In this document: piece by piece, positions 34,657 through 47,955 of the stretch
How positions within the stretch are numbered: position 1 is the first letter of the stretch
Layout: each line of letters begins with the position of its first letter
Sequence record: NZ_AP019754.1
Length of the DNA stretch: 64,000 nt
Reading direction: 5' to 3' (one strand)
Source: a plasmid
The notes under the pieces: model-generated
What the model was told of the DNA's origin: nothing
The model's database searches: none
Seen by the model: only the letters and a program-made list of their open reading frames with translations
Translations under genes and position numbers: made by a program

Positions 34657-36306
34657 TTACAGCGCCATATCGTGCTGCGCCGAGGCTGGGGCTTTTTCGC
34701 TGTTAGCAGCGGGCGCTTCAGTTGGCTGATTGCCCATCTGAATAACCGGCGGCTTGGTCAGCTGCAGCGTTGCTGCCGTTTCATCCCAGACCTGCTGCGT
34801 GAGCGCAGGGTTGTCGTTCAGTTTCTGGCCGTAAGCAGGAACGATTTTACGGATTTTTTCCTGCCATTCTGCTGACTTGAATTGTTCCGGGAACAGTTTC
34901 TGCATCACATTGATTGCGATAGGTGCAGCCGTGGATGCGCCAGGCGATGCACCCAGCAATGCGGCAACGGTTTTCTGCTGATCGGTCACAATTTCCGTAC
35001 CCAGTTTCAGCACGCCGCCTTTATCCGCATCCTTTTTGATGATCTGCACGCGCTGACCGGCCTGAATCAGTTTCCAGTCTTCTTTCTTCGCTTCAGGATA
35101 GTACTCTTTCAGCGCGGCAAAACGGTCATCATCGCTCAACATAACCTGACCGATCAGGTATTTGACCAGGTCAAAGTTATCCATGCCTACGTGGGTCATC
35201 GGCATAAAGTTGTGCGTGGTCGTTGTGCTCAGTAAATCAAACAACGAACCATTTTTCAGGAACTTGGTTGAGAACGTTGCGAAAGGTCCAAACAGCACGA
35301 CACGCTTACCATCAAGGTAACGGGTATCCAGATGCGGAACCGACATCGGTGGCGCACCCACGGAAGCCTGACCATACACTTTTGCCAGATGGCGATCGGC
35401 AATCGCGCTATTCTCTGTCACCAGGAAGGATCCCCCTACCGGGAAACCTGCGTAATTGTCGGCTTCCGGAATACCGGTTTTTTGCAGCAGTTTAAGCGCA
35501 CCGCCACCTGCACCGATAAAGACGTATTTCGCGTCTACGGTACGTTCGCCGCCATTTTTGGCGTCTTTAATGGTAACGTGCCAGGAATTATCACTGTTAC
35601 GTTTAAAATCGGTCACTTCCGAAGAGGTTTCCAGGCGGAAATTATCGTTCTTCTTCAGGCTGCCAATTAACTGACGGGTGATTTCACCATAGTTAACGTC
35701 GGTTCCTACTGGCGTCCAGGTAGCAGCCACTTTTTGTTGTGGATCGCGACCTTCCATAACCAGCGGCGCCCACTGCGCGATCTGCTTGTGATCGGTTGAG
35801 AACTTCATGCCCTGGAACAGCACAGTTTTCTGCAGTGCGGCATAGCGTTTCGTCAGATAATCAACGTTATCGCCCCAGACAAAGCTCATGTGCGGCGTTG
35901 AGTTAATGAACGAACGCGGATTATTTAACACGCCGTCTTTAACCTGAGAGCTCCAGAACTGACGAGAAATCATGAAGGCTTCGTTGATTTCCAGCGCTTT
36001 GGTCACGTCAATAGAACCGTCTGCACGCTCTGGCGTGTAGTTCAGTTCCATGTTGGCTGAGTGGCCGGTACCGGCGTTGTTCCAGCCGTTAGAGGATTCC
36101 AGCGCTACGCCATCAAGTTTCTCAACCATGATCTGTTTCCAGCCCGGTTGCAGCTCTTCCAGCAGGGTGCCCAGAGAGGCGCTCATGATACCGCCGCCAA
36201 TCAGCAGAACATCTGTTTTTTCTGGTGAATTTTCAGCGTGGGTCACTGAAGAAACGAGTAACGCTGCAAGCGACAGTGCAGGTACAAATTTAGTTGATTT
36301 AATCAT
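34657..36306 (-). CDS. mqo: Malate:quinone oxidoreductase.
   Basis: 549 aa. N-terminal FAD-binding [17 protein letters not shown] and Mqo-family colinearity throughout. Confidence 0.9.
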
Positions 36307-36686: not shown

Positions 36687-37631
36687 TTAGTGGCGAATCA
36701 GCGCCAGTTCGTCTTCACTCAGACCAGTCATCTTCATAACCGTCTCACGGTCAAGACCGCTTTGAAGCATAGTGCGGGCGATTTTCAGCGTCGCTTCGCG
36801 CTCTCCCTCTGAGCGGCCTTCTTCGCGACCCAGTTGGATGCCTTTTTCCATGCCTTTTTCCATGCCTTTTTGTTCGAGCTGCTGCGCAATGGTCATCAGT
36901 ACGTCTCCGTGTTGCGGCACGCGATGTGCCAGTTCTCTTACCAATGCTTCGGCGTCGGCGGTTTCTCCCGCCTGCACGATATAGTGTATCAGTGATACGA
37001 CCTGTGATGAAGAAAGATAGCCCGCCAGTAAGACCGGGACAAGCTTATCAACCAACTCCGCTAAATCGCGCTGGTGGATATGTTTCTGAAGCAGGGTTAA
37101 CGCGGCCATACTGCGGTGCTCTGCAATCTCCTCGTCAGGAATAATCGTGACATCCACCAGCGGAAAAGCCGTGCTATAGAGCCGGTTGGCCAGCGCAGGA
37201 TCGGTAAATTCATCCAGCCAGCGCGTGGAATAAGGATAAGGACGACGTTTCCCGGTATAGAACAAGACAGGGATGACCAGCGGCAATTTTTTATGGCCGG
37301 CTTCAAGGTGGCGCTGCATCGCCGCCACGGCATAACGCAGCAGCCTGAATGCCATGTGCTTATCCGGTGAGGACTGATGTTCGATCAGGACGTGAACATA
37401 GCCGTCATCGCCTTGTGCGGTTTTCAGGCTGTACAACACGTCGCTGAAATATTGGCGAAGATCATCTTCAACGAAAGATCCGGATTCGAGTTTTAACGTG
37501 CTGAGATCGCACACGGCCCGTAATTCCGCAGGCAGGTGCAATTCCATAAAATCACGCGCAATCTCTGTCTGCGTAAGAAACTGGCGGAAGGTGGCATCGT
37601 GAGGCGTGGGTGTACTGTTTTTTTTCTTCAT
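36687..37631 (-). CDS. Rpn-family recombination-promoting nuclease / putative transposase (YhgA-like, PD-(D/E)XK).
   Basis: 314 aa. N-terminal HDATFRQFL...LHLPAELR motif, and the YhgA-like C-terminal region with repeated GMEKG. Confidence 0.8.
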   Translation of the reverse strand: MKKKNSTPTPHDATFRQFLTQTEIARDFMELHLPAELRAVCDLSTLKLESGSFVEDDLRQYFSDVLYSLKTAQGDDGYVHVLIEHQSSPDKHMAFRLLRYAVAAMQRHLEAGHKKLPLVIPVLFYTGKRRPYPYSTRWLDEFTDPALANRLYSTAFPLVDVTIIPDEEIAEHRSMAALTLLQKHIHQRDLAELVDKLVPVLLAGYLSSSQVVSLIHYIVQAGETADAEALVRELAHRVPQHGDVLMTIAQQLEQKGMEKGMEKGIQLGREEGRSEGEREATLKIARTMLQSGLDRETVMKMTGLSEDELALIRH

Positions 37632-37890: not shown

Positions 37891-39531
37891 ATGCTGACTA
37901 TGAATGACTCCCGGCCACAACGATCGTTAAAGAAGCGCCCAATGAAGCTCAGCACCCTGTCGTCATTGATGATGGCGGCCGTGCTGATGACCGTAATATT
38001 AAGCGTCCATCTGCTTTATTACATCCAGATCGATAACTTCACCCGTTCGCATTTGAAAGATAAAGCGATGGCAGTGGCGCGCACTCTGGCCGACAGCCCG
38101 GAGATTCAGCAGGCCCTGACGCGGCCAGACGGAAGCACCATCATTCAACCGATCGCGCAGGCAACGCGAAAACGTAACGATTTGCTGTTTGTCGTCGTCA
38201 CCGACATGCGCGGTATTCGCTTCTCTCACCCGAACCCTGAAGTGGTTAATCAGCACTTTGTCGGGAACGATATTAAACCGGCGTTACGCGGCAGGGAGAA
38301 TGTCGCGGTGAATCATGGCGTACTGGTTGAGGCGCTCAGGGTATTTACGCCCGTTTTCAATCAGGCGCATCAGCAAATTGGCGTGGTGGCCATTGGGATC
38401 TCGGTGAATGATGTCGCGGCGCAAATTGCGAAAAGCCGCTGGAATATTCTCTGGACCGTGCTGTTTGGCGGGCTGGTTGGCATGCTCGGCATATTAATCT
38501 TAGTGAAACGCTTAAAGCACATTTTACTGGGATTAGAGCCGTATGAGATTTCCAGCTTGTTTGAAGAGCGTCAGGCTATTCTCGATTCGATTAAAGAAGG
38601 TGTGATTGCGGTTGACGATCAATCCCGCGTCAGCCTGATTAATCAGGCTGCGCAGCAGCTGTTAAAAGAAACCACCCGCGAAGCATTTCTGAGCGGTGAC
38701 CGCGTGCCGGAAAATGCACAGATGCTGACGCATTTACGCGATGCATTGCACGAAGGCAAAGCCTCTTATGACGAAGAGCTCAACGTACGCGGCAAAATAC
38801 TGATCAGTAACACCGTGCCGGTGCGCAGTCGTGACAGTATTATTGGGGCAGTGAGCACATTCAGGGATAAAACAGAAATCAGCCAGCTAATGCAGCGTCT
38901 CGACGGCATGGTAAACTATGTCGATGCACTGCGGGAGCGATCCCATGAATTCATGAACAAGCTGCATGTGATTCTTGGTCTGCTACACATGAAAAACTAT
39001 GCGCAGATGGAAGAGTACATCCTTAAAACGGCCAATAACTATCAAACGGAAATAGGTTCGCTGCTACAGAAGATTAAGTCGCCTGTTATTGCAGGCTTCC
39101 TGTTGAGCAAAATTAACCGCGTAACAGATGAAGGCCACCAGCTGATCCTGAGCGAAGCCAGCTATCTGCCCGACAACGGCAGTGAACAGCAAATCGCAGC
39201 ACTTATCACGGTACTGGGCAATCTGATTGAAAACGCGCTGGAAGCGCTCGATCCGGAAATGGAAGGGGAAATCCATGTCATGCTGCATTATCAAAACGGC
39301 TGGCTGTCGTGCGAGGTCAGTGACGATGGCCCCGGTATTCCTGCCGATCAGCTCGCCGCCATTTTCGAACGCGGCGTCTCTACCAAAGGTGAAGATCGTG
39401 GCGTTGGACTGTTTTTACTCAAGCAACAAACGGAAAGTCTGGGCGGTAACGTCAGCGTGGAATCAGAACCGGGCGTTTATACTCAGTTTCTGGTTCAGCT
39501 TCCGTGGGAAAGAGGGAATATTAGCGAATGA
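37891..39531 (+). CDS. dcuS: C4-dicarboxylate sensor histidine kinase DcuS (CitA family).
   Basis: Near-colinear with E. coli DcuS: KRPMKLST, KAMAVARTLADSPEI, RKRNDLLFVVVTDM, the periplasmic PAS domain, and H-box ERSHEFMNKLHVILGLLH. Confidence 0.9.
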   Translation: MLTMNDSRPQRSLKKRPMKLSTLSSLMMAAVLMTVILSVHLLYYIQIDNFTRSHLKDKAMAVARTLADSPEIQQALTRPDGSTIIQPIAQATRKRNDLLFVVVTDMRGIRFSHPNPEVVNQHFVGNDIKPALRGRENVAVNHGVLVEALRVFTPVFNQAHQQIGVVAIGISVNDVAAQIAKSRWNILWTVLFGGLVGMLGILILVKRLKHILLGLEPYEISSLFEERQAILDSIKEGVIAVDDQSRVSLINQAAQQLLKETTREAFLSGDRVPENAQMLTHLRDALHEGKASYDEELNVRGKILISNTVPVRSRDSIIGAVSTFRDKTEISQLMQRLDGMVNYVDALRERSHEFMNKLHVILGLLHMKNYAQMEEYILKTANNYQTEIGSLLQKIKSPVIAGFLLSKINRVTDEGHQLILSEASYLPDNGSEQQIAALITVLGNLIENALEALDPEMEGEIHVMLHYQNGWLSCEVSDDGPGIPADQLAAIFERGVSTKGEDRGVGLFLLKQQTESLGGNVSVESEPGVYTQFLVQLPWERGNISE

Positions 39532-40247
39532 TCAATGTGTTAGTCGTAGACGATGATGCCATGGTGGCCGAACTGAACCGATGCTATATCGGGCAGATTG
39601 ACGGTTTTACCTGCTGTGGTACCGCGTCCACCTTACAGCAAGCCAAAGAGCGCCTGTTGCAGACAGATCCGCCCGTTGATCTTATTTTGCTGGATATCTA
39701 TATGCAGCAGGAAAACGGACTGGACCTGTTGCCAGAGCTGCGCAGTGCGGGGCGTCCGGTTGACGTCATTATCATCTCATCCGCTGCCGATGCGGCGACC
39801 ATTAAAACGTCGCTGAACTACGGCGTTGTGGATTATCTGATAAAACCCTTTCAGTTTTCCCGCTTTGAAGAGGCGCTGACCGGATGGCGTCAGAAAAAAC
39901 GGCTGATGGATAATCATCAGTTTTATCAGCAGGCCGATGTGGATCAACTGCTGCATGGTAATCAGGCCAATGCCAGCGAGACAAAACGCCTGCCAAAAGG
40001 GCTGACGCCGCAGACATTACGTACGCTGTGTTTGTGGATTGATGCGCACCCCGGTACCGAGTTTTCTACCGATGAGCTGGCCACTGAGGTGAATATTTCT
40101 CGCGTATCGTGCCGTAAATACCTGATTTGGCTGGCGCAGAGCAATATTTTGTTTACCAGTATTCACTACGGCGTCACGGGACGTCCGGTGTATCGCTATC
40201 GTCTGCAGCCGGAGTACCACACGCTTTTACGCCAGTACTGTCAATGA
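39528..40247 (+). CDS. dcuR: Response regulator DcuR (CitB family).
   Basis: ATGA overlap with the dcuS stop. Receiver domain VLVVDDD...LLDIYM and a C-terminal HTH. 239 aa. Confidence 0.85.
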   Translation: MINVLVVDDDAMVAELNRCYIGQIDGFTCCGTASTLQQAKERLLQTDPPVDLILLDIYMQQENGLDLLPELRSAGRPVDVIIISSAADAATIKTSLNYGVVDYLIKPFQFSRFEEALTGWRQKKRLMDNHQFYQQADVDQLLHGNQANASETKRLPKGLTPQTLRTLCLWIDAHPGTEFSTDELATEVNISRVSCRKYLIWLAQSNILFTSIHYGVTGRPVYRYRLQPEYHTLLRQYCQ

Positions 40248-41251
40248 CGGAGCTGAAAGCAATTATCCAGTAAGGTGAAGTGAAAGTGACGTTGTGACGA
40301 GCAAATGACCTGCTTGTCGCGCGTCACGAAGACAGCCTCAATATCAGGATGGCTTTTCAGATACGCAATGCCCTTCTCAACGCCCATGCCATAAATCAGC
40401 GTGGTATAAATATCACCGTCGATCGACTGATCGGAAATAATGGTCACGCTATACAGCTCATTATCCAGCGGATAGCCGGTATGTCTGTCAAGAATATGGT
40501 GATAACAGACGCCATCCTGTTCGAAGTAACGTTCGTAGATCCCGGACGTCACCACGGATTTGTTCACAACATGAATGACACCAATCAGGGCATCCTGGGC
40601 CGCAAAAGGGGTTTTCAGACCGATTGCCCATCCCTGCTGCGGCGCATCACGAGGTGCGCCTAACGTTTGCACGTTGCCGCCAAGGTTAATCAACGCGCTA
40701 TCGACGCCCTGCTGCTGCAAAAAAGCCTGCACCCGATCGGCAATGTAGCCTTTGGCGATGGCACCCAGATCAATTTCCATCCCCGTTTTGTTCAGAAACA
40801 CCGAACGCGTGTCCGCATCAAGCTGGACATTTTCAGGACAGGTTAAGGGCAACGTTGCCAGTATTGTCTCCCGCGCAGGAACGCAGTCACCCTGAAAGCC
40901 AATTTTCCAGCATTTCACCAGCGGGCCAATCGTGAGATTAAAACTGCTGTCTGGTAACAGACTGACGTTAAGTGCGCGCTGAATTAAATCAAAGACGGGT
41001 TGACTGACGCTCACGGGATGCTGACCGGCAGCATGGTTAATCGCCATCACTTCGGAGTGCGTCCGGTTAACCGTCAGCAGATTTTCGTACTGTTTGATTA
41101 ATCTGAAAGCCTGTGCCGCAAGCTTTTCGTCGTGCTCGAATAGCTTAAGCAGAATGGGCGATCCCATCAGGACGGCGGAATAAGCACAGACTTGCGACTC
41201 GGTTTGCATAGGCGACACCGCTCTGGGAGGGAATAAAACCGGCACCTGCAT
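40241..41251 (-). CDS. apbE: FAD:protein FMN transferase (ApbE family), predicted cytoplasmic because it has no signal peptide.
   Basis: ApbE fold motifs (LMGSPI, AKGYIADR, TSGIYERYF). No N-terminal hydrophobic segment. Lies 24 nt downstream of the flavoprotein gene. Start is ambiguous (41251 or 41209). Confidence 0.75.
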   Translation of the reverse strand: MQVPVLFPPRAVSPMQTESQVCAYSAVLMGSPILLKLFEHDEKLAAQAFRLIKQYENLLTVNRTHSEVMAINHAAGQHPVSVSQPVFDLIQRALNVSLLPDSSFNLTIGPLVKCWKIGFQGDCVPARETILATLPLTCPENVQLDADTRSVFLNKTGMEIDLGAIAKGYIADRVQAFLQQQGVDSALINLGGNVQTLGAPRDAPQQGWAIGLKTPFAAQDALIGVIHVVNKSVVTSGIYERYFEQDGVCYHHILDRHTGYPLDNELYSVTIISDQSIDGDIYTTLIYGMGVEKGIAYLKSHPDIEAVFVTRDKQVICSSQRHFHFTLLDNCFQLRH

Positions 41252-41275
41252 GCGGGCAGATGCCGGCGGTGACGA

Positions 41276-44053
41276 CTAGCGTTTGGCTAACGCCGCAGCG
41301 TTGGCACCTGCCAGAATACCAAAGATGATGATGTCCGCAACCGCGTTACCACCGATACGGTTTGCACCGTGGATCCCGCCGACAACTTCACCGCACGCCC
41401 AGGCACCGTGGATTGGCTGTTTATGGCTGTCGAGCACGGCTGTGGTGGTATCAATGGTGACGCCACCCATTGTGTGGTGAACACCGGGCGCGATGCGGAT
41501 CGCATGGAAAGGGCCCTCGTTCAACGGATGACGCAGCGCGGTCTGACGATCGAAGTCCGCGTCTTTCTGCTGTATCACAAAGCCGTTATAGCGATGCAGC
41601 GTTTCTTCCAGCGTCCGGTGTTCCATATTCAGTTTCACCGCCAGCTCGCCTACGGTTGGCGCGCTGATAACAAATCCTTTGGCAATATACTCATCGGCCG
41701 CTTTGTTATTCATACGAACCTGCTCATCGAAGACAATCCAGGCGCTTTTCTCCGGCAGTGCAATAATCTGCGCAGAAACTTTATCGCGGGTTTCCATCTC
41801 ATTACAGAAGCGCTGTCCCGCCTGGCTGACCAGAATGGCCCCACCGCCACGAATAGACTCTGACACCAGATAGGATGTGGTTTGCTCAACCGTTGGGTGA
41901 ATCTGAATCTCGCCCATATCCACGGTATCCGCACCAATTTTTTGCAGCATCGCAATGCCTGCGCCAGTGGCCCCTTTATGGTTGGTGGTGACAAAGCCAT
42001 CCAGCTCAGGGCGGTATTTCACCACCATTTCCCGGTTGGCGCTGAAGCCACCTGTTGCGACGATGACGCTTTTCGCATTGAGAATACGGCTGTCGTTGTA
42101 TTCATCCACCACTTTGACACCGCTGACCGCGCCGTTGTCGAACAAAATTTCCTCTACGGCGGTTTCAAGCAGGACGTCAATATTACGGTTATTGATATTT
42201 TTCACTAACCCACTGATCAGGAAGCCGCCAACGGCCGAGCGGTCGGCAGGACGGTGCGTACGATCAATGCTCATGCCGCCGGTGATGGTGATGTCATTCA
42301 GTTCGATACCGTGATCGGCCAGCCAGTCAATGGCTTCAGGCGCCAAATCAACGAACTCGCGCAGCAGGGTCGGGTTGTTTTTGTACTTACCGCCCTTGAG
42401 CGTTTCCTCATAAAACAGTTCTTTGCTGTCTTCGATACCTTTCAGTTTCTGAAAACGCGTCTCGGCGGCGTTCATCCCTACGGATGCTTTGATCGTGTTA
42501 CCGCCGATAGTGGGCATTTTCTCAATGACAACCACTTTGGCACCTTCATCATGCGCCTGAATGGCCGCGGCCAGACCGGCACCGCCGCTTCCCACGACCA
42601 CCACATCATACTGTTGCGGTGCATTGGGATTACCGCCCTCTTCAATCACATGGGCTTTATTTGAAGTGGTCATTGCACGCGATACTGCTTTTTTCAGGGC
42701 CTCACTCTGCGTGGTCGCGCCGGTGATAGCATCAACGTGTGGGCTGTTAGCCACCAGAATACGATTACGCAGGCTTTCGAAGGTGGTAGTGAAGTCAACG
42801 TCCAGCGTGTCGTCCGGTACCAGCGAGATATCTGTAATACGGTCGGTATCCAGCGTGACGTTGATCTTCAGCTTAAGCGCTTCGGCCTCAACTTTTTCCT
42901 GATAAACACCGGCTTTGTATTTGCGTCCCGACTCACTCATATCGCGAATCATGGCGTCAACCAGCGAGAAACGCCACAGCGGTTCAGGGATCAATAACGC
43001 TTCACGCTGGTTACTGTCGATGTAAAGTTCAAGATGCTCATTATTGATAATGCGATCTGTCCAGTCGGGATAAGCGATGCAGGCTTTACCAATCGCAACC
43101 AGGTCATAGCCTTTTTCCAGCGCTTTTTCCGCATCTTCTTTGTTTACCACACCGCCAACGCCAATGACCGGCACTTTCGCCAGCGTTGGGGACCGCATGT
43201 TAATAAACTTCTCAATCAGCGGGGTTGGATCGGTGGTATCAACGATAGAGGGGCGCATAAGCTGCCCAACAGAAAAGTGGACATAATCGAGCCCGCGTGC
43301 CGCCAGCTTTTCCAGTAGGTACAGGGTGTCATCGAAACGGATGCCCGGGACTTCAAGTTCTTCAGGGGAAAAACGATAGCCGATGATGAACCCGTTATGT
43401 GCAAATCGCGCGGCCATTTTATGGGTAATTTCGAGGACTTCCAGCGGAAAGCGGGCACGGTTATCGCGACTGCCGCCCCATTTGTCATCGCGTTGATTGG
43501 AATTGGGTGAGTAAAATTGCTGTATCAGATAGGTGTTTGCGCCATGAATTTCAACGCCATCAAATCCGGCTTTAATGGCGCGGTTAACGGCGTCACCAAA
43601 TTTAGTGATCATGGTATCCACTTCTTCTGCCGTTAGCGCGCGCGGCGTCGTGGCACCCTCACGAGGTGCGGCAATGGCGCTTGGGGCGACAGGGGTTTTC
43701 CCCCCTATCAGCTCAGGCTCAACCATGCGGCCGCCGTGATAGATCTGCAAAATCGCTGTCGAACCTTCCTGCTTGATGGCGTCAGCAATTCGCTTTAGGC
43801 CCGGAATTTTGTTGTCGCTGTCGATGGCTATAGCCCCTGGAAACGCGGGACCTTTTGGATCGATAAAACAGCATTCAACAATGACCGTTCCGATGCTGCC
43901 AGCACGGGCACGATAATATTCAACCAGTTCACTGGTGACCGTTCCGTCATAAAAACCGGTGCAGGTTGTCATGGGTGCCATGATCAGGCGATTTTTTAAA
44001 ACCGCGCCACGCGGCAACGTAATGGAATTGAGAATGGGGGTGAGTGTATTCAT
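41276..44053 (-). CDS. Three-domain soluble flavoprotein: OYE-like NADH:flavin oxidoreductase, FMN_bind, and an FAD-binding fumarate-reductase-type domain. Resembles the Klebsiella NADH:fumarate oxidoreductase.
   Basis: N-terminal TIM-barrel OYE motifs. Central FMN_bind with DAITGATT (a [S/T]GAT flavinylation site). C-terminal FAD_binding_2 with VVVVGSGGAGLAAA, QIHPTV, SIRGGGAIL, HHTMGG and NRIGGNA. GGAG Shine-Dalgarno before the ATG at 44053. Confidence 0.8.
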   Translation of the reverse strand: MNTLTPILNSITLPRGAVLKNRLIMAPMTTCTGFYDGTVTSELVEYYRARAGSIGTVIVECCFIDPKGPAFPGAIAIDSDNKIPGLKRIADAIKQEGSTAILQIYHGGRMVEPELIGGKTPVAPSAIAAPREGATTPRALTAEEVDTMITKFGDAVNRAIKAGFDGVEIHGANTYLIQQFYSPNSNQRDDKWGGSRDNRARFPLEVLEITHKMAARFAHNGFIIGYRFSPEELEVPGIRFDDTLYLLEKLAARGLDYVHFSVGQLMRPSIVDTTDPTPLIEKFINMRSPTLAKVPVIGVGGVVNKEDAEKALEKGYDLVAIGKACIAYPDWTDRIINNEHLELYIDSNQREALLIPEPLWRFSLVDAMIRDMSESGRKYKAGVYQEKVEAEALKLKINVTLDTDRITDISLVPDDTLDVDFTTTFESLRNRILVANSPHVDAITGATTQSEALKKAVSRAMTTSNKAHVIEEGGNPNAPQQYDVVVVGSGGAGLAAAIQAHDEGAKVVVIEKMPTIGGNTIKASVGMNAAETRFQKLKGIEDSKELFYEETLKGGKYKNNPTLLREFVDLAPEAIDWLADHGIELNDITITGGMSIDRTHRPADRSAVGGFLISGLVKNINNRNIDVLLETAVEEILFDNGAVSGVKVVDEYNDSRILNAKSVIVATGGFSANREMVVKYRPELDGFVTTNHKGATGAGIAMLQKIGADTVDMGEIQIHPTVEQTTSYLVSESIRGGGAILVSQAGQRFCNEMETRDKVSAQIIALPEKSAWIVFDEQVRMNNKAADEYIAKGFVISAPTVGELAVKLNMEHRTLEETLHRYNGFVIQQKDADFDRQTALRHPLNEGPFHAIRIAPGVHHTMGGVTIDTTTAVLDSHKQPIHGAWACGEVVGGIHGANRIGGNAVADIIIFGILAGANAAALAKR

Positions 44054-44444
44054 TGCGATTAACTCCAAAAATTCAAAACTCGGGAATTCTGTGCGGACGC
44101 TTTTTTATTAATAAATAAGTGGTCCGATGTCATAACGCTAATATACCAATTATTTTAGTTTCATAAGTTTTAATTTTAGTTTTTTAACTTTTAAATATTT
44201 CAAGTTTACTATTTGATTAAAGCAGGATCGTGATGTATATTTATTGTTAATCAATAGTTAAGGAAAATCAATGAGAATTGTGAAATTAAAAATACTACAA
44301 TAAAAACAATAGCTTAAACATATAATTCTGTTGCTCACCCTTCCCAAAGTGAAGCTTAAAACCCTTATTTTTGCAGTTTAAATATTTGGCTCTAGGTTAT
44401 TAATAATTTAGTTGTTAAAATTTTAATCGTATAATTTAACTTAC

Positions 44445-44458
44445 TTGATCTGGATCAA
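44445..44458. promoter_or_regulatory. Perfect FNR consensus box TTGAT-CTGG-ATCAA.
   Basis: Read directly from the sequence. It lies inside the 575-bp AT-rich divergent intergenic region between the flavoprotein operon and the DASS transporter operon. Confidence 0.5.
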
Positions 44459-44643
44459 TATTCTGTTTTTAATTAATCGCATCATATCCACATGATCTTT
44501 TATAAATGCCTCCATCGCACCAGAGGACAAGTTAAAGAATTATAAGGCATCACGGTTTATTCTCATAATTTAGAATAAAGAAGTCCCTATGGACGAATTG
44601 CCGGGACGCTGCTCGAATTATCCTTAACACGTAGAAAAATACT

Positions 44644-46152
44644 ATGAAAACACTCTCAAACGTCAAAGAGCCTCCAAAAGCAGCCCCTGCAACTGCGGGC
44701 AAAAATAAAGCACTTATGCTCCTTTTGCCGGTTTTGGTCGCCGTCCTGTTGTTACTCGTCCCCGTGCCAGCGGGTCTTGAACCTTATGCATGGCACTTCT
44801 TTGCCATCTTCGTCGGCGTCATCGTCGGGCTGATTTTTGAACCCTTGCCCGGCGCAGTGATTGGTCTGACCGGCGTCGTCGTCATCGCCTTGTTCAGCCA
44901 GTTCCTGCTCTTTAGCCCGGCAGAACTGGCCAACCCCAAATTTAAAGTGGCGAGTGAGTCATTTAAATGGGCGGTCAGCGGCTTCGGTAACTCAACCGTC
45001 TGGCTGATTTTTGGCGCATTCATGTTCGCTGCGGGCTATGACAAGACCCAGTTCGGCCGCCGTCTGGCATTGATTCTGGTGAAATACCTGGGCCGCCGGA
45101 GTTTAACCCTCGGCTATGCCATCACCTTCGCGGATTTGCTGCTGGCCCCTTTCACCCCGTCGAACACGGCCCGCAGTGGCGGTACCATTTATCCCATCAT
45201 TGCCAATCTGCCGCCGCTTTATGGTTCAAAACCCAATGACCCCAGCGCGCGTAAAATTGGATCTTATCTGATGTGGGTTGCTATCACCGCCGCCTGTATC
45301 ACCAGCTCCATGTTCCTGTCCGCCCTGGCCCCCAACCTGCTCGCCCTTGCGCTGGTCAAAAGCGTCATTGGTTTTGATATCTCCTGGGGAATGTGGTTCC
45401 TTGCCTTTTTGCCACTGGGCCTGCTGTTGATTCTGACCATGCCGCTGCTGGCGTACTGGTTCTATCCGCCTGAAGTGAAGGTGAATGATGAAGTGCCTCG
45501 CTGGGCGATTGCTGAGCTGGAAAAACTGGGTAAGTTGACCCGTAATGAAATCCTGTTACTGGTGTTTGTTGTCTGTGCGCTACTGATGTGGATTTTTGCC
45601 ACTGCCTGGATCGAACCGGCCATGGCCGCTCTGCTGGTGATTATCCTGATGCTGTGGACCGGGGTACTTAACTGGAACGACATCACTAGCAATAAAGCCG
45701 CCTGGAACACCTTTGCCTGGTTTGCCACACTGGTTGCGCTGGCCGATGGTTTAGCCCGCGTAGGCTTTATCGCCTGGCTGGGCAAAGAAGGGGGAATGTT
45801 ACTGCAGGGATACGATCCTCAAGTGTCGGCTGTGGTGCTGTTGATTGCCTTCTTCCTGCTGCACTACCTGTTTGCCAGTACCACCGCGCATACGACCGCC
45901 TTGCTGCCTGCGATGTTAACCATTGCCGCTTCCATTCCAGGTATTAACATGCCCGTGTTTTGCCTGATGCTGTGTACTTCACTGGGTGTGATGGGGATTA
46001 TCACCCCTTACGGTACCGGCCCAAGCCCTATTTATTACGGCAGCGGCTATTTACCTACGAAAGATTACTGGCGTCTGGGCACCATCTTTGGTGCTATCTT
46101 CCTGATTGCTATGATGCTCATCGCCTACCCCTGGATGGTGTGGATGTTCTGA
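44644..46152 (+). CDS. DASS-family dicarboxylate antiporter (TtdT-like tartrate/succinate-type anion exchanger).
   Basis: 502 aa. Motifs PVPAGLE, SNTARSGG, KAAWN and TPYGTGPSPIYYGSGYLPT are colinear with E. coli TtdT (YgjE). Confidence 0.85.
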   Translation: MKTLSNVKEPPKAAPATAGKNKALMLLLPVLVAVLLLLVPVPAGLEPYAWHFFAIFVGVIVGLIFEPLPGAVIGLTGVVVIALFSQFLLFSPAELANPKFKVASESFKWAVSGFGNSTVWLIFGAFMFAAGYDKTQFGRRLALILVKYLGRRSLTLGYAITFADLLLAPFTPSNTARSGGTIYPIIANLPPLYGSKPNDPSARKIGSYLMWVAITAACITSSMFLSALAPNLLALALVKSVIGFDISWGMWFLAFLPLGLLLILTMPLLAYWFYPPEVKVNDEVPRWAIAELEKLGKLTRNEILLLVFVVCALLMWIFATAWIEPAMAALLVIILMLWTGVLNWNDITSNKAAWNTFAWFATLVALADGLARVGFIAWLGKEGGMLLQGYDPQVSAVVLLIAFFLLHYLFASTTAHTTALLPAMLTIAASIPGINMPVFCLMLCTSLGVMGIITPYGTGPSPIYYGSGYLPTKDYWRLGTIFGAIFLIAMMLIAYPWMVWMF

Positions 46153-46308: not shown

Positions 46309-47955
46309 ATGTCGAACAAACCTTTTTTTTATCAGAACCCCTTTCCTCTTGCCCACGAGGACACCGAATACTATTTGCTTAGCCCCGACCACGTTTCCGT
46401 GGCTGAGTTTGACGGCCAGTCCATATTAAAAGTGGACCCACAGGCATTGACGCTGCTGGCCCAGCAGGCCTTTCATGATGCGTCTTTTATGTTGCGCCCG
46501 GCCCACCAGCAGCAGGTTGCGTCAATTCTGGCTGACCCTGAAGCCAGCGATAACGATAAATACGTCGCACTGCAGTTCTTACGAAACTCCGAGATCGCCG
46601 CTAAAGGTGTCTTGCCAACCTGCCAGGACACCGGCACTGCCATCATCATGGGCAAAAAAGGCCAGCGAGTGTGGACCGGTGGCGGTGACGAAGCCGCGCT
46701 GTCGCAAGGTATCTACAATACCTATATTGAAGATAACCTGCGTTACTCCCAAAACGCCGCGCTGGATATGTATAAAGAAGTGAACACCGGTACCAATCTT
46801 CCGGCGCAGATTGACCTCTACAGCGTGGACGGTGATGAATACAAATTCCTTTGCATCGCCAAAGGCGGCGGTTCCGCCAATAAAACCTATTTGTATCAGG
46901 AAACCAAGGCACTGCTCAGCCCGGGCAAGCTGAAAAATTATCTGGTCGATAAAATGCGTACGCTGGGTACTGCGGCTTGTCCTCCCTACCATATCGCCTT
47001 TGTCATTGGCGGCACCTCTGCCGAAAGTACGCTGAAAACCGTCAAGCTGGCATCGACTCACTACTATGATGGTTTACCTACAGAAGGTAACGAGCATGGC
47101 CAGGCGTTCCGTGATGTTCAGCTTGAGCAGGAGTTACTGGAAGCGGCGCAGCAGCTTGGGCTGGGAGCACAGTTCGGCGGCAAATATTTTGCACATGATA
47201 TCCGCGTAGTGCGTTTGCCTCGCCACGGCGCATCCTGCCCGGTTGGCATGGGGGTTTCGTGCTCCGCTGACCGCAATATCAAAGCTAAAATCAACCGCGA
47301 GGGTATCTGGATTGAAAAACTGGAAGCCAATCCTGGGCGTTATATCCCTGAAGCACTGCGCAAGCAAGGTGAAGGCGAAGTGGTTCACATCGACCTGAAT
47401 CGCCCGATGAATGACATCCTTGCCCAGCTTTCGGAATACCCGGTTTCGACACGTTTGTCCCTGACCGGGACCATCATCGTTGCGCGTGACATTGCCCATG
47501 CCAAACTAAAAGAACGCATTGATAACGGCGAAGGCTTGCCGCAGTACATTAAAGATCACCCTGTCTATTATGCGGGTCCGGCCAAAACACCGGAGGGTTA
47601 CGCATCTGGCTCACTGGGCCCGACGACGGCAGGCCGCATGGATTCGTATGTCGATCTTCTGCAGGCGAATGGCGGCAGCAAAGTCATGCTGGCAAAAGGT
47701 AACCGTAGCCAGCAGGTCACCGATGCCTGCCACAAGCACGGCGGTTTTTACTTAGGCAGCATTGGTGGTCCGGCTGCCGTTCTGGCGCAGCAGAGCATCA
47801 AGAGTCTGGAGTGCGTGGAGTATGCCGAACTGGGGATGGAAGCTATCTGGAAAATAGAGGTCGAAAATTTCCCGGCCTTTATCCTGGTGGATGACAAAGG
47901 AAATGACTTCTTCCAGCATATCGAACGTGAGCACTGCTCGCGCTGTGTGAAATAA
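46309..47955 (+). CDS. fumB: Class I (Fe-S) fumarate hydratase, FumA/FumB type. It cannot be assigned to FumA or FumB from sequence alone; the anaerobic context suggests FumB.
   Basis: 548 aa. [14 protein letters not shown]...[14 protein letters not shown]... is nearly identical in pattern to E. coli FumA/FumB over the whole length. Confidence 0.9.

Follow-up and report, generated by a model that had tools for sequence, protein, structure and literature searches.

The window, a 64-kb stretch of a large Pantoea ananatis plasmid (sequence record NZ_AP019754.1), carries two adjacent genes on its minus strand. The gene frd (41276–44053) encodes a predicted soluble NADH:fumarate oxidoreductase of 925 aa and 100 kDa, in which Pfam delineates three domains. 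Its ATG at 44053 is preceded by GGAG, and a TTG at 44068 offers a slightly longer open reading frame as an alternative. The gene apbE (40241–41209) encodes a predicted leaderless FAD:protein FMN transferase of 322 aa. Both are flanked by plus-strand genes. On one side lie a DcuS/MalK-family sensor histidine kinase (37891–39531; NF008298, 787 bits vs a cut-off of 520) and the response regulator DcuR (39528–40247; NF007750, 448 bits vs 262), whose gene is convergent with apbE and overlaps it by 7 nt at the stop codons. On the other side, a DASS-family anion transporter (44644–46152), divergent from frd, is followed by the class I fumarate hydratase FumA (46309–47955; NF011919, 1200 bits vs 1105). 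The 590-bp intergenic region between frd and the DASS gene (29% GC) contains a perfect FNR-type palindrome, TTGATCTGGATCAA (44445–44458), which is the single match in the 64-kb window, with 0.12 expected.

This arrangement is widespread: large Pantoea plasmids carry it, and it recurs in Erwinia, Rahnella, and related genera. Among the best 80 of 214 genome matches, the DASS gene adjoins frd in 75 loci, the dcuS-type gene is syntenic in at least 48, and the FNR-type box occupies the same position in 49. The gene apbE follows frd within about 500 nt or less in 53 of these 80 loci and at 6.4 kb in a 54th. The complete dcuSR/apbE-frd/DASS-fumA module is present in 45 loci of the same set and in none of 5426 complete Escherichia coli genomes. 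However, 23 of the 80 loci carry frd with no apbE next to it, and adjacency is therefore not obligatory.

Along the single Frd polypeptide, Pfam places the domains in the order Oxidored_FMN, then FMN_bind, then FAD_binding_2, all encoded on the minus strand. The old yellow enzyme (OYE)-like domain (Oxidored_FMN, PF00724; 43040–44002, residues ~18–338, E = 7e-75) also matches old yellow enzymes in the PDB (E = 1e-47 and weaker) and is predicted to be the NADH-oxidising site with a non-covalent FMN, a role taken from the fumarate reductase (FRD) of Klebsiella pneumoniae. It is followed by the FMN_bind domain (PF04205; 42671–42871, residues ~395–461, 28.8 bits vs a cut-off of 22) and then by FAD_binding_2 (PF00890; 41339–42607, residues ~483–905, E = 5e-81), which is the predicted site of fumarate reduction. 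A heuristic sequence scan found no N-terminal signal motif and no transmembrane segment in Frd, and the maximum 19-residue Kyte-Doolittle mean, 1.97, falls inside the C-terminal FAD_binding_2 region. RefSeq names this 925-aa product 'flavocytochrome c', and the NCBIfam name is equally generic, the profiles NF005064 and TIGR01813 covering residues 475–924 only. The CxxCH haem motif is absent across all 925 residues, which rules out a haem domain. Since the OYE-like and FMN_bind domains stand in its place, the RefSeq name is a misnomer.

The sequence-only reading had pointed to a TGAT motif in an FMN_bind domain beside an ApbE, and this was confirmed. The segment DAITGATTQSEALK corresponds to Frd residues 441–454 (nt 42692–42733) and begins with the flavinylation motif D441-A-I-T-G-A-T447 (42713–42733, minus strand), in which the codon of T447 occupies 42713–42715. 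The motif fits the published form Dxx[s/t]gA[T/S] (PMC12052999). The pattern D..[ST]GA[ST] occurs once in Frd, within the FMN_bind domain, and a six-frame search of the 64-kb window shows it in no other place in any open reading frame of 80 aa or more. All 81 orthologs keep D441, G445, A446, and T447 unchanged, and T447, the last Thr of DxxTGAT, is the predicted phosphoester acceptor of FMN. For the Frd peptide ILVANSPHVDAITGATTQSEALK, the computed MH+ is 2336.25, which would become 2774.34 with the FMN adduct (+438.09 Da).

The FAD_binding_2 part of Frd was compared with the flavocytochrome c3 fumarate reductase (Fcc3) of Shewanella (1qjd), which it matches in a PDB search with E = 4e-120. 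In Fcc3, Motif I consists of R402, H504, and R544, Motif II of H365 and T377, and Motif III of E378, R381, and R402. The Frd residues H719, S731, E732, R735, R756, H859, and R899 correspond to Fcc3 H365, T377, E378, R381, R402, H504, and R544, so that six of seven are identical. The exception among these fumarate-binding and proton-path positions, Thr377, is replaced by Ser731 in all 81 orthologs.

ApbE matches PF02424 over the entire profile (positions 1–266 of 266; 273 bits, E = 3e-81), and its closest solved structure is FmnB of Listeria monocytogenes (E = 1e-67 over residues 11–320). The reference for the catalytic Ser-His-Asp triad was FmnB S257/H273/D301 and Vibrio cholerae ApbE S241/H257/D285, and that for the Mg2+ ligands was D284 and T288 of Treponema pallidum Ftp. 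ApbE residues S222, R227, H238, and D266 correspond to FmnB S257, R262, H273, and D301, and E226, D266, and T270 to Ftp E244, D284, and T288. All six of these ApbE positions are invariant in 54 orthologs. Each catalytic and Mg-binding residue tested is thus intact, and FMN transfer is predicted.

The absence of a signal peptide and lipobox from ApbE, also claimed earlier from the sequence, held up when heuristics were combined with alignment to solved ApbE structures. The heuristic scan of ApbE found no lipobox, Tat motif, or basic n-region, and the alignment leaves ~10 residues before the first core strand, compared with ~44 in FmnB. A revised start cannot lengthen the N-terminus, because the TAG of frd closes the frame 8 codons upstream of the first ATG (41251), and an extended form was excluded on this ground. 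Against the enterobacterial lipoprotein equivalog NF007774, ApbE scores 127 bits, with a cut-off of 498, and the match starts only at profile position 59. With no lipobox and a closed frame in addition, the protein is not of the canonical enterobacterial periplasmic lipoprotein type. Cys8 was rejected as a lipobox Cys, as the preceding SQV is unfit and relatives have Tyr or Phe there. Homologues of 350–351 aa were rejected as signal-bearing forms, one being C-terminally extended and the other having a non-hydrophobic N-terminal over-extension. As ApbE has no export signal, the cytoplasm should be the site of flavinylation. This part of the sequence-only reading is very likely right, though not new. 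To call a cytoplasmic ApbE unusual was overstated, as cytosolic ApbEs are a documented minority with a precedent in K. pneumoniae.

Alternatives to a fumarate reductase and its dedicated maturase have to be weighed at both proteins. Frd might be a cytoplasmic NADH:2-enoate reductase, still flavinylated by ApbE, that acts on a substrate other than fumarate, e.g., acrylate, methacrylate, urocanate, or cinnamate, like the Vibrio enzymes ARD and Crd. Substrates do vary within this architecture family, specificity has been ascribed to Motif II, where the Ser shared by all orthologs lies, and the name given by NCBIfam is no more than generic. However, Frd retains the Motif II His together with every Motif I and III residue, and the Ser still bears a hydroxyl, whereas ARD has Met in place of this His and is devoid of the Motif III residues. 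The best PDB matches of Frd are true fumarate reductases, compared with E = 3e-83 for urocanate reductase, and the 45 complete loci surround frd with fumA, dcuS/dcuR, and a dicarboxylate-type transporter, which makes a non-fumarate substrate improbable. For ApbE, a main role of the Ftp type in the cytoplasm, as FAD pyrophosphatase or in flavin trafficking, instead of or besides that of a dedicated Frd maturase, was considered. T. pallidum Ftp is its second-best PDB match (E = 1e-53), and Asn48, invariant in 54 orthologs, aligns with Ftp Asn55, at which the exchange N55Y abolished FAD hydrolysis while FMN transfer persisted (PMC4436053). Yet Ftp is itself also an FMN transferase (PMC4436053), and a single residue is weak evidence for hydrolysis. 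The tight linkage of apbE to a protein with a perfect acceptor motif (54 of the best 80 of 214 loci), together with the K. pneumoniae precedent, indicates maturation as the selected function, and the Ftp-like role is quite unlikely. Export of ApbE by an unrecognised signal, with periplasmic targets and an incidental neighbourhood to frd, is highly improbable. In its favour, the segment AVLMGSPILLKLF near the N-terminus is moderately hydrophobic (mean Kyte-Doolittle 2.1 over 10 residues), and some homologues bear the JGI label 'thiamine biosynthesis lipoprotein'. But in the alignment this segment falls on the first core strand of mature FmnB (chain residues 25–40), the strand with the conserved MG[TS] motif, the acidic N-terminus contains neither Lys nor Arg, and the homologue sequences read have Tyr or Phe in place of the sole nearby Cys. 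The closed frame bars any N-terminal extension, and Frd, for its part, has neither a signal peptide nor a transmembrane segment.

The longest open reading frame of apbE (40241–41251, minus strand, 336 aa) begins with ATG 41251, 24 nt past the frd stop, and the spacing of 24 nt proposed earlier holds for this frame only. An ATG at this distance was found, besides the window, in only one of the loci examined (P. ananatis L001). The ATG at 41209, M15 of the longest frame and 66 nt past the frd stop, is common to almost all relatives, RefSeq annotates the 322-aa form, and the closest database protein also has 322 aa. On this comparison, ATG 41209 is most likely the true start. That the two genes are translationally coupled across the 24-nt spacer and ApbE begins at ATG 41251 is accordingly very unlikely, although the in-frame ATG exists. 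Even P. allii and P. agglomerans lack this ATG but share the one at +57 to +66. ATG 41251 has no Shine-Dalgarno sequence. The gap between frd and apbE ranges in relatives from about 16 to 460 nt, with 6.4 kb at one locus. Moreover, ATG 41251 (41251–41249) sits at the junction of loop and 3' arm of a terminator-like hairpin between the two genes (41228–41267, minus strand), which has a 12-bp stem with 8 G-C pairs and a 6-nt loop and is followed by TTTATT. Most related loci have similar hairpins whose stems differ in sequence, and because the ATG lies inside this conserved structure, the earlier proposal of coupling is unsupported. The scan for promoters and terminators, taken overall, stayed at background (7 promoter-like sites vs 5.9 expected and 5 terminator-like sites vs 6.2 expected). 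The intercistronic hairpin alone stood out, by its own folding statistics (MFE −33.7 kcal/mol, z = −4.3) and its conservation. A further idea, speculative and rather doubtful, is that the hairpin may be a deliberate attenuator that holds the cytoplasmic flavin transferase far below its substrate, as an ApbE of the Asn48 type may, like Ftp with its Asn55, hydrolyse free FAD. If so, an unchecked enzyme would drain the cytoplasmic FAD pool, a cost of the cytoplasmic location that periplasmic ApbEs avoid, and the operon layout would have evolved to contain it.

Very probably, frd and apbE form a two-gene unit that pairs a soluble NADH:fumarate oxidoreductase of the cytoplasm with a maturase dedicated to it, set within a C4-dicarboxylate module. 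What follows on chemistry, electron path, substrate, and regulation is taken over from the K. pneumoniae homologue and Fcc3. By this analogy, the leaderless ApbE would bind FAD and Mg2+ in the cytoplasm and transfer the FMN moiety as a phosphoester to the Thr447 hydroxyl of FMN_bind, with release of AMP. In mature Frd, NADH would reduce the non-covalent FMN of the OYE-like domain, and the covalent FMN would relay electrons to the non-covalent FAD in FAD_binding_2, where fumarate, gripped by His719/Ser731 and Arg756/His859/Arg899, would be reduced to succinate. The DASS transporter and FumA would supply fumarate, and DcuS/DcuR, probably together with FNR, would activate the module under anoxia if C4-dicarboxylates are available. 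Expression of apbE would most likely occur by read-through of the hairpin, and for this reason it should stay below the level of frd.

The Pantoea genes are very probably a plasmid copy of a system known from K. pneumoniae and thus real but ordinary. The idea of cytoplasmic flavinylation is not new, because it has already been described for the leaderless ApbE and the soluble fumarate reductase of that species; both the concept and the matching experiments are published for the Klebsiella enzyme. The main gain is a better annotation, in which 'flavocytochrome c' becomes a soluble NADH:fumarate reductase and its neighbour a cytoplasmic flavin transferase. Under oxygen shortage, the module probably helps plant-associated hosts use malate or fumarate to reoxidise NADH.

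The leaderless ApbE of K. pneumoniae is essential for flavinylation of the soluble fumarate reductase (work by Bertsova et al., 2014 in BBA and 2020, cited in PMC12052999, PMC4348036, and bioRxiv 2022.01.20.477176), and a Thr-to-Ala exchange in the latter abolished flavinylation (cited in PMC12052999). This NADH:fumarate reductase has the same three-domain architecture (bioRxiv 2022.01.20.477176), and the Pantoea pair is likened to it by architecture, motifs, and context. FRD (KPK_2907) shares the order OYE-like/FMN_bind/FAD_binding_2, one Dxx[s/t]gAT motif, and a partner ApbE without signal peptide, and may also share the conserved Fcc3 fumarate-site residues. Both species belong to the Enterobacterales but to different genera, and in P. 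ananatis the genes reside on a large plasmid. Klebsiella was not among the best 80 of 214 genome matches, which reach down to 75% identity, and identity to the Klebsiella counterpart is therefore probably below ~75%. A protein search seeded with a Cedecea-like homologue (L066) yielded no Klebsiella among the matches listed, all of at least 81%, and Klebsiella matches in a tblastn search of plasmids were unrelated OYE genes only.

Other known systems resemble parts of the Pantoea pair. ARD of Vibrio harveyi (NADH:acrylate reductase) is likewise cytoplasmic, with an OYE-like domain and an ApbE-flavinylated FMN_bind domain feeding FAD_binding_2, and differs in the Motif II and III residues, for which Frd retains the fumarate type. 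Crd of Vibrio ruber (NADH:cinnamate reductase) is also cytoplasmic, passes electrons from an ApbE-flavinylated FMN_bind domain to FAD_binding_2, and is encoded in a locus with apbE, but has a different NADH-oxidising domain. Fcc3 (1QJD) shares the FAD_binding_2 catalytic domain and the active-site residues; however, it is a periplasmic enzyme fed with electrons by an N-terminal tetrahaem domain, where Frd would use the OYE-like and FMN_bind domains. ApbE of E. coli and Salmonella, FmnB, and Ftp belong to the same PF02424 fold family, with Ser-His-Asp triad, Arg, and Mg2+ ligands in common, but have a lipoprotein signal and an extracytoplasmic site of action, whereas Pantoea ApbE has only the ~10 residues before its core. 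The trypanosomatid fumarate reductase also relies on an intracellular flavin transferase acting on a soluble NADH-dependent enzyme. There, however, the substrate carries the ApbE domain as an N-terminal fusion, and a Ser close to the N-terminus serves as acceptor, whereas Pantoea encodes enzyme and transferase in separate genes.

Both open reading frames were found where the sequence-only reading had placed them, frd (41276-44053, minus strand) for the 925-aa three-domain flavoprotein Frd and apbE adjoining its 3' end. In RefSeq, frd is named 'flavocytochrome c' (925 aa) and apbE 'FAD:protein FMN transferase' (322 aa); their neighbours are annotated as a sensor histidine kinase, a DASS transporter, dcuR and fumA. 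The first name is a misnomer, because the 925 residues of Frd contain no CxxCH haem motif and the models TIGR01813/NF005064 match only residues 475-924, the C-terminal half. Over 10.2 kb the region is 99.3-99.6% identical to large Pantoea ananatis plasmids such as pEA320 of AJ13355 and those of LMG 5342 and PA13, and Frd is 99.9% identical to its counterpart on plasmid pPANA1 of P. ananatis LMG 2665. The module was absent from E. coli (5426 complete genomes searched).

Profile searches divided Frd into an Oxidored_FMN (OYE) domain (E = 7e-75), which begins directly at the N-terminus, an FMN_bind domain (28.8 bits, cut-off 22) and a FAD_binding_2 domain (E = 5e-81). The TGAT motif noticed earlier in the FMN_bind domain was borne out. 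It lies within residues 441-454, DAITGATTQSEALK, and the pattern D..[ST]GA[ST] occurs once in Frd and, across all six frames of the 64-kb window, in no other open reading frame of 80 aa or longer. All 81 orthologs have D441, G445, A446 and T447, and the flavinylation motif is genuine rather than a match by chance. For the peptide ILVANSPHVDAITGATTQSEALK, the computed MH+ shifts from 2336.25 to 2774.34 with FMN. A heuristic sequence scan found neither signal motifs nor a transmembrane segment in Frd.

The smaller protein gave a full-length match to the ApbE profile (E = 3e-81), and the earlier view that it carries no signal peptide or lipobox was upheld by alignment and heuristics. The apbE reading frame is that of frd and is closed by the frd TAG, eight codons before ATG 41251, which rules out a longer N-terminus. 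In the 322-aa form, the conserved Y-S-A-V-L-M-G-S-P strand begins after only about 10 residues. It aligns with residues 25-33 of the crystal chain of FmnB, the Listeria monocytogenes homologue; judging by the offset of +20 in the numbering of the catalytic residues, this is near position 45 in the complete lipoprotein. The N-terminus of the 322-aa form is acidic, and a heuristic scan showed it to be free of Lys and Arg, with neither a lipobox nor a Tat motif; in the homologue sequences compared, Tyr or Phe stands in place of the single nearby Cys. On the NCBIfam equivalog that represents the lipoprotein ApbE of enterobacteria it scored 127 bits versus a cut-off of 498, matching only from profile position 59, and as judged from these comparisons it is a distinct paralogue of that lipoprotein.

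The catalytic residues are intact. FmnB Ser257, Arg262, His273 and Asp301 align with identical S222, R227, H238 and D266, and Ser240, Glu244, Arg245 and His256 of Treponema pallidum Ftp as well as its Mg ligands Asp284 and Thr288 are identical in the aligned ApbE; all are invariant in 54 orthologs. Asn48 (41066-41068, minus strand, 322-aa numbering) aligns with Ftp Asn55 and is Asn in 54/54 orthologs. In Ftp, the N55Y exchange abolished FAD pyrophosphatase activity and kept FMN transfer (PMC4436053). Since Asn is invariant at this position, this cytoplasmic ApbE may belong to the type that hydrolyses FAD.

A 24-nt spacing between the genes had previously been taken to suggest translational coupling. 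This spacing depends on ATG 41251 (336-aa form), which among the loci examined recurs only in the other P. ananatis locus; P. allii, P. agglomerans and relatives further removed do not have it. The ATG at 41209 (M15 of the longer form) is common to nearly all relatives and is followed by M-x-T-[DE]-x-x-V-Y-A-Y-S-A-V-L-M-G-S-P, and the resulting 322-aa form is used by RefSeq and the closest database proteins; thus, the gap is most likely 66 nt. Between the frd stop and this conserved start lies a terminator-like hairpin (41228-41267, minus strand), oriented for the frd transcript, with a 12-bp stem containing 8 G-C pairs, a 6-nt loop and a T-run (TTTATT); ATG 41251 falls on the junction of loop and 3' arm. 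The surrounding 80 nt fold with -33.7 kcal/mol (z = -4.3), and 0/200 shuffles were as good. GC-rich hairpins occupy the equivalent position in 41 of 53 related loci, 23 of the 41 with a T-rich tail, and stem sequences vary between clades while pairing is kept. As the gap in other relatives additionally varies between about 16 and 460 nt, translational coupling is not supported. We infer that the two genes are more naturally read as co-transcribed, with partial termination between them, and the conserved hairpin suggests attenuated read-through expression of apbE. At its other end, apbE is convergent with dcuR and the stop codons overlap by 7 nt (TCAATGA, 40241-40247), which leaves no space for a terminator between them.

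As to the substrate, the C-terminal domain of Frd matched the Shewanella fumarate reductase Fcc3 with E = 4e-120, urocanate reductase with 3e-83 and yeast Frd with 7e-65. By alignment, Fcc3 His365, Thr377, Glu378, Arg381, Arg402, His504 and Arg544 correspond to H719, S731, E732, R735, R756, H859 and R899, all uniform in 81/81 orthologs. Ser731 (41861-41863, minus strand) replaces Thr377 of Motif II, which binds the C1 carboxylate, in 81/81 orthologs; it is the single departure from the Fcc3 set and retains the hydroxyl group, all other fumarate-site residues being identical. In Fcc3 these positions belong to Motifs I, II and III, which a preprint (bioRxiv 2022.01.20.477176) states to be conserved in Klebsiella pneumoniae FRD.

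The surrounding genes encode a DcuS/MalK-family kinase (787 bits), DcuR (448 bits), class I fumarase FumA (1200 bits) and a DASS transporter. Among the best 80 of 214 genome matches, on which all counts over related loci are based, the complete fumA-DASS / frd-apbE / dcuR-dcuS arrangement was present in 45, from Pantoea, Erwinia, Rahnella, Ewingella and others. A second arrangement with DASS and frd alone, without apbE, fumA and dcuSR, was present in 23 of the 80 (L017, L018, L028, L066-L069, L071 and others). Several Rahnella species have both, e.g. L028 and L074 of one genome, so that two Frd paralogues may share one ApbE. The 590-bp intergenic region (44054-44643, 29% GC) that separates frd from the divergently oriented DASS gene holds an FNR-type palindrome, TTGATCTGGATCAA (44445-44458; TTGAT-N4-ATCAA), the only perfect occurrence in the 64-kb window, with 0.12 expected; 49 of the best 80 of 214 loci have it at the same distance from frd, about 400 nt upstream. 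The module fits a malate/fumarate-to-succinate route that would be induced by anaerobiosis and C4-dicarboxylates. At the dcuS end it adjoins a gene for an Rpn-family (YhgA-like, Transposase_31) recombination-promoting nuclease (36687-37631, minus strand), beyond which lies a malate:quinone oxidoreductase gene (34657-36306), syntenic in 15 of these 80 loci.

Taken together, an intact leaderless ApbE and an acceptor motif in a soluble Frd support the predicted flavinylation in the cytoplasm, and the initial observation was largely confirmed for what is an already known system. Minor unexplored points concern the hairpin between the genes, Asn48 as the invariant counterpart of Ftp Asn55, and the Motif II Thr-to-Ser exchange. 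Calling the cytoplasmic location unusual was an overstatement, as a leaderless ApbE had been described in K. pneumoniae, which according to a review (PMC12052999) has two ApbEs, one with and one without a lipoprotein signal. K. pneumoniae FRD consists of an OYE-like, an FMN_bind and a FAD_binding_2 domain and contains covalent FMN, non-covalent FAD and non-covalent FMN at 1:1:1 (bioRxiv 2022.01.20.477176). The Pantoea frd/apbE pair resembles this system in architecture, motifs and context, from which orthology may be argued. A large flavinylation survey deliberately left out proteins without signal peptides (PMC8238504), and cytosolic cases are less visible because of this. Related cytoplasmic reductases of Vibrio are flavinylated likewise, the V. 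ruber crd locus has a putative apbE, and in trypanosomatid FRDs an ApbE domain is fused to the reductase. Given these precedents, frd/apbE represents a known system recognised in another enterobacterial genus.
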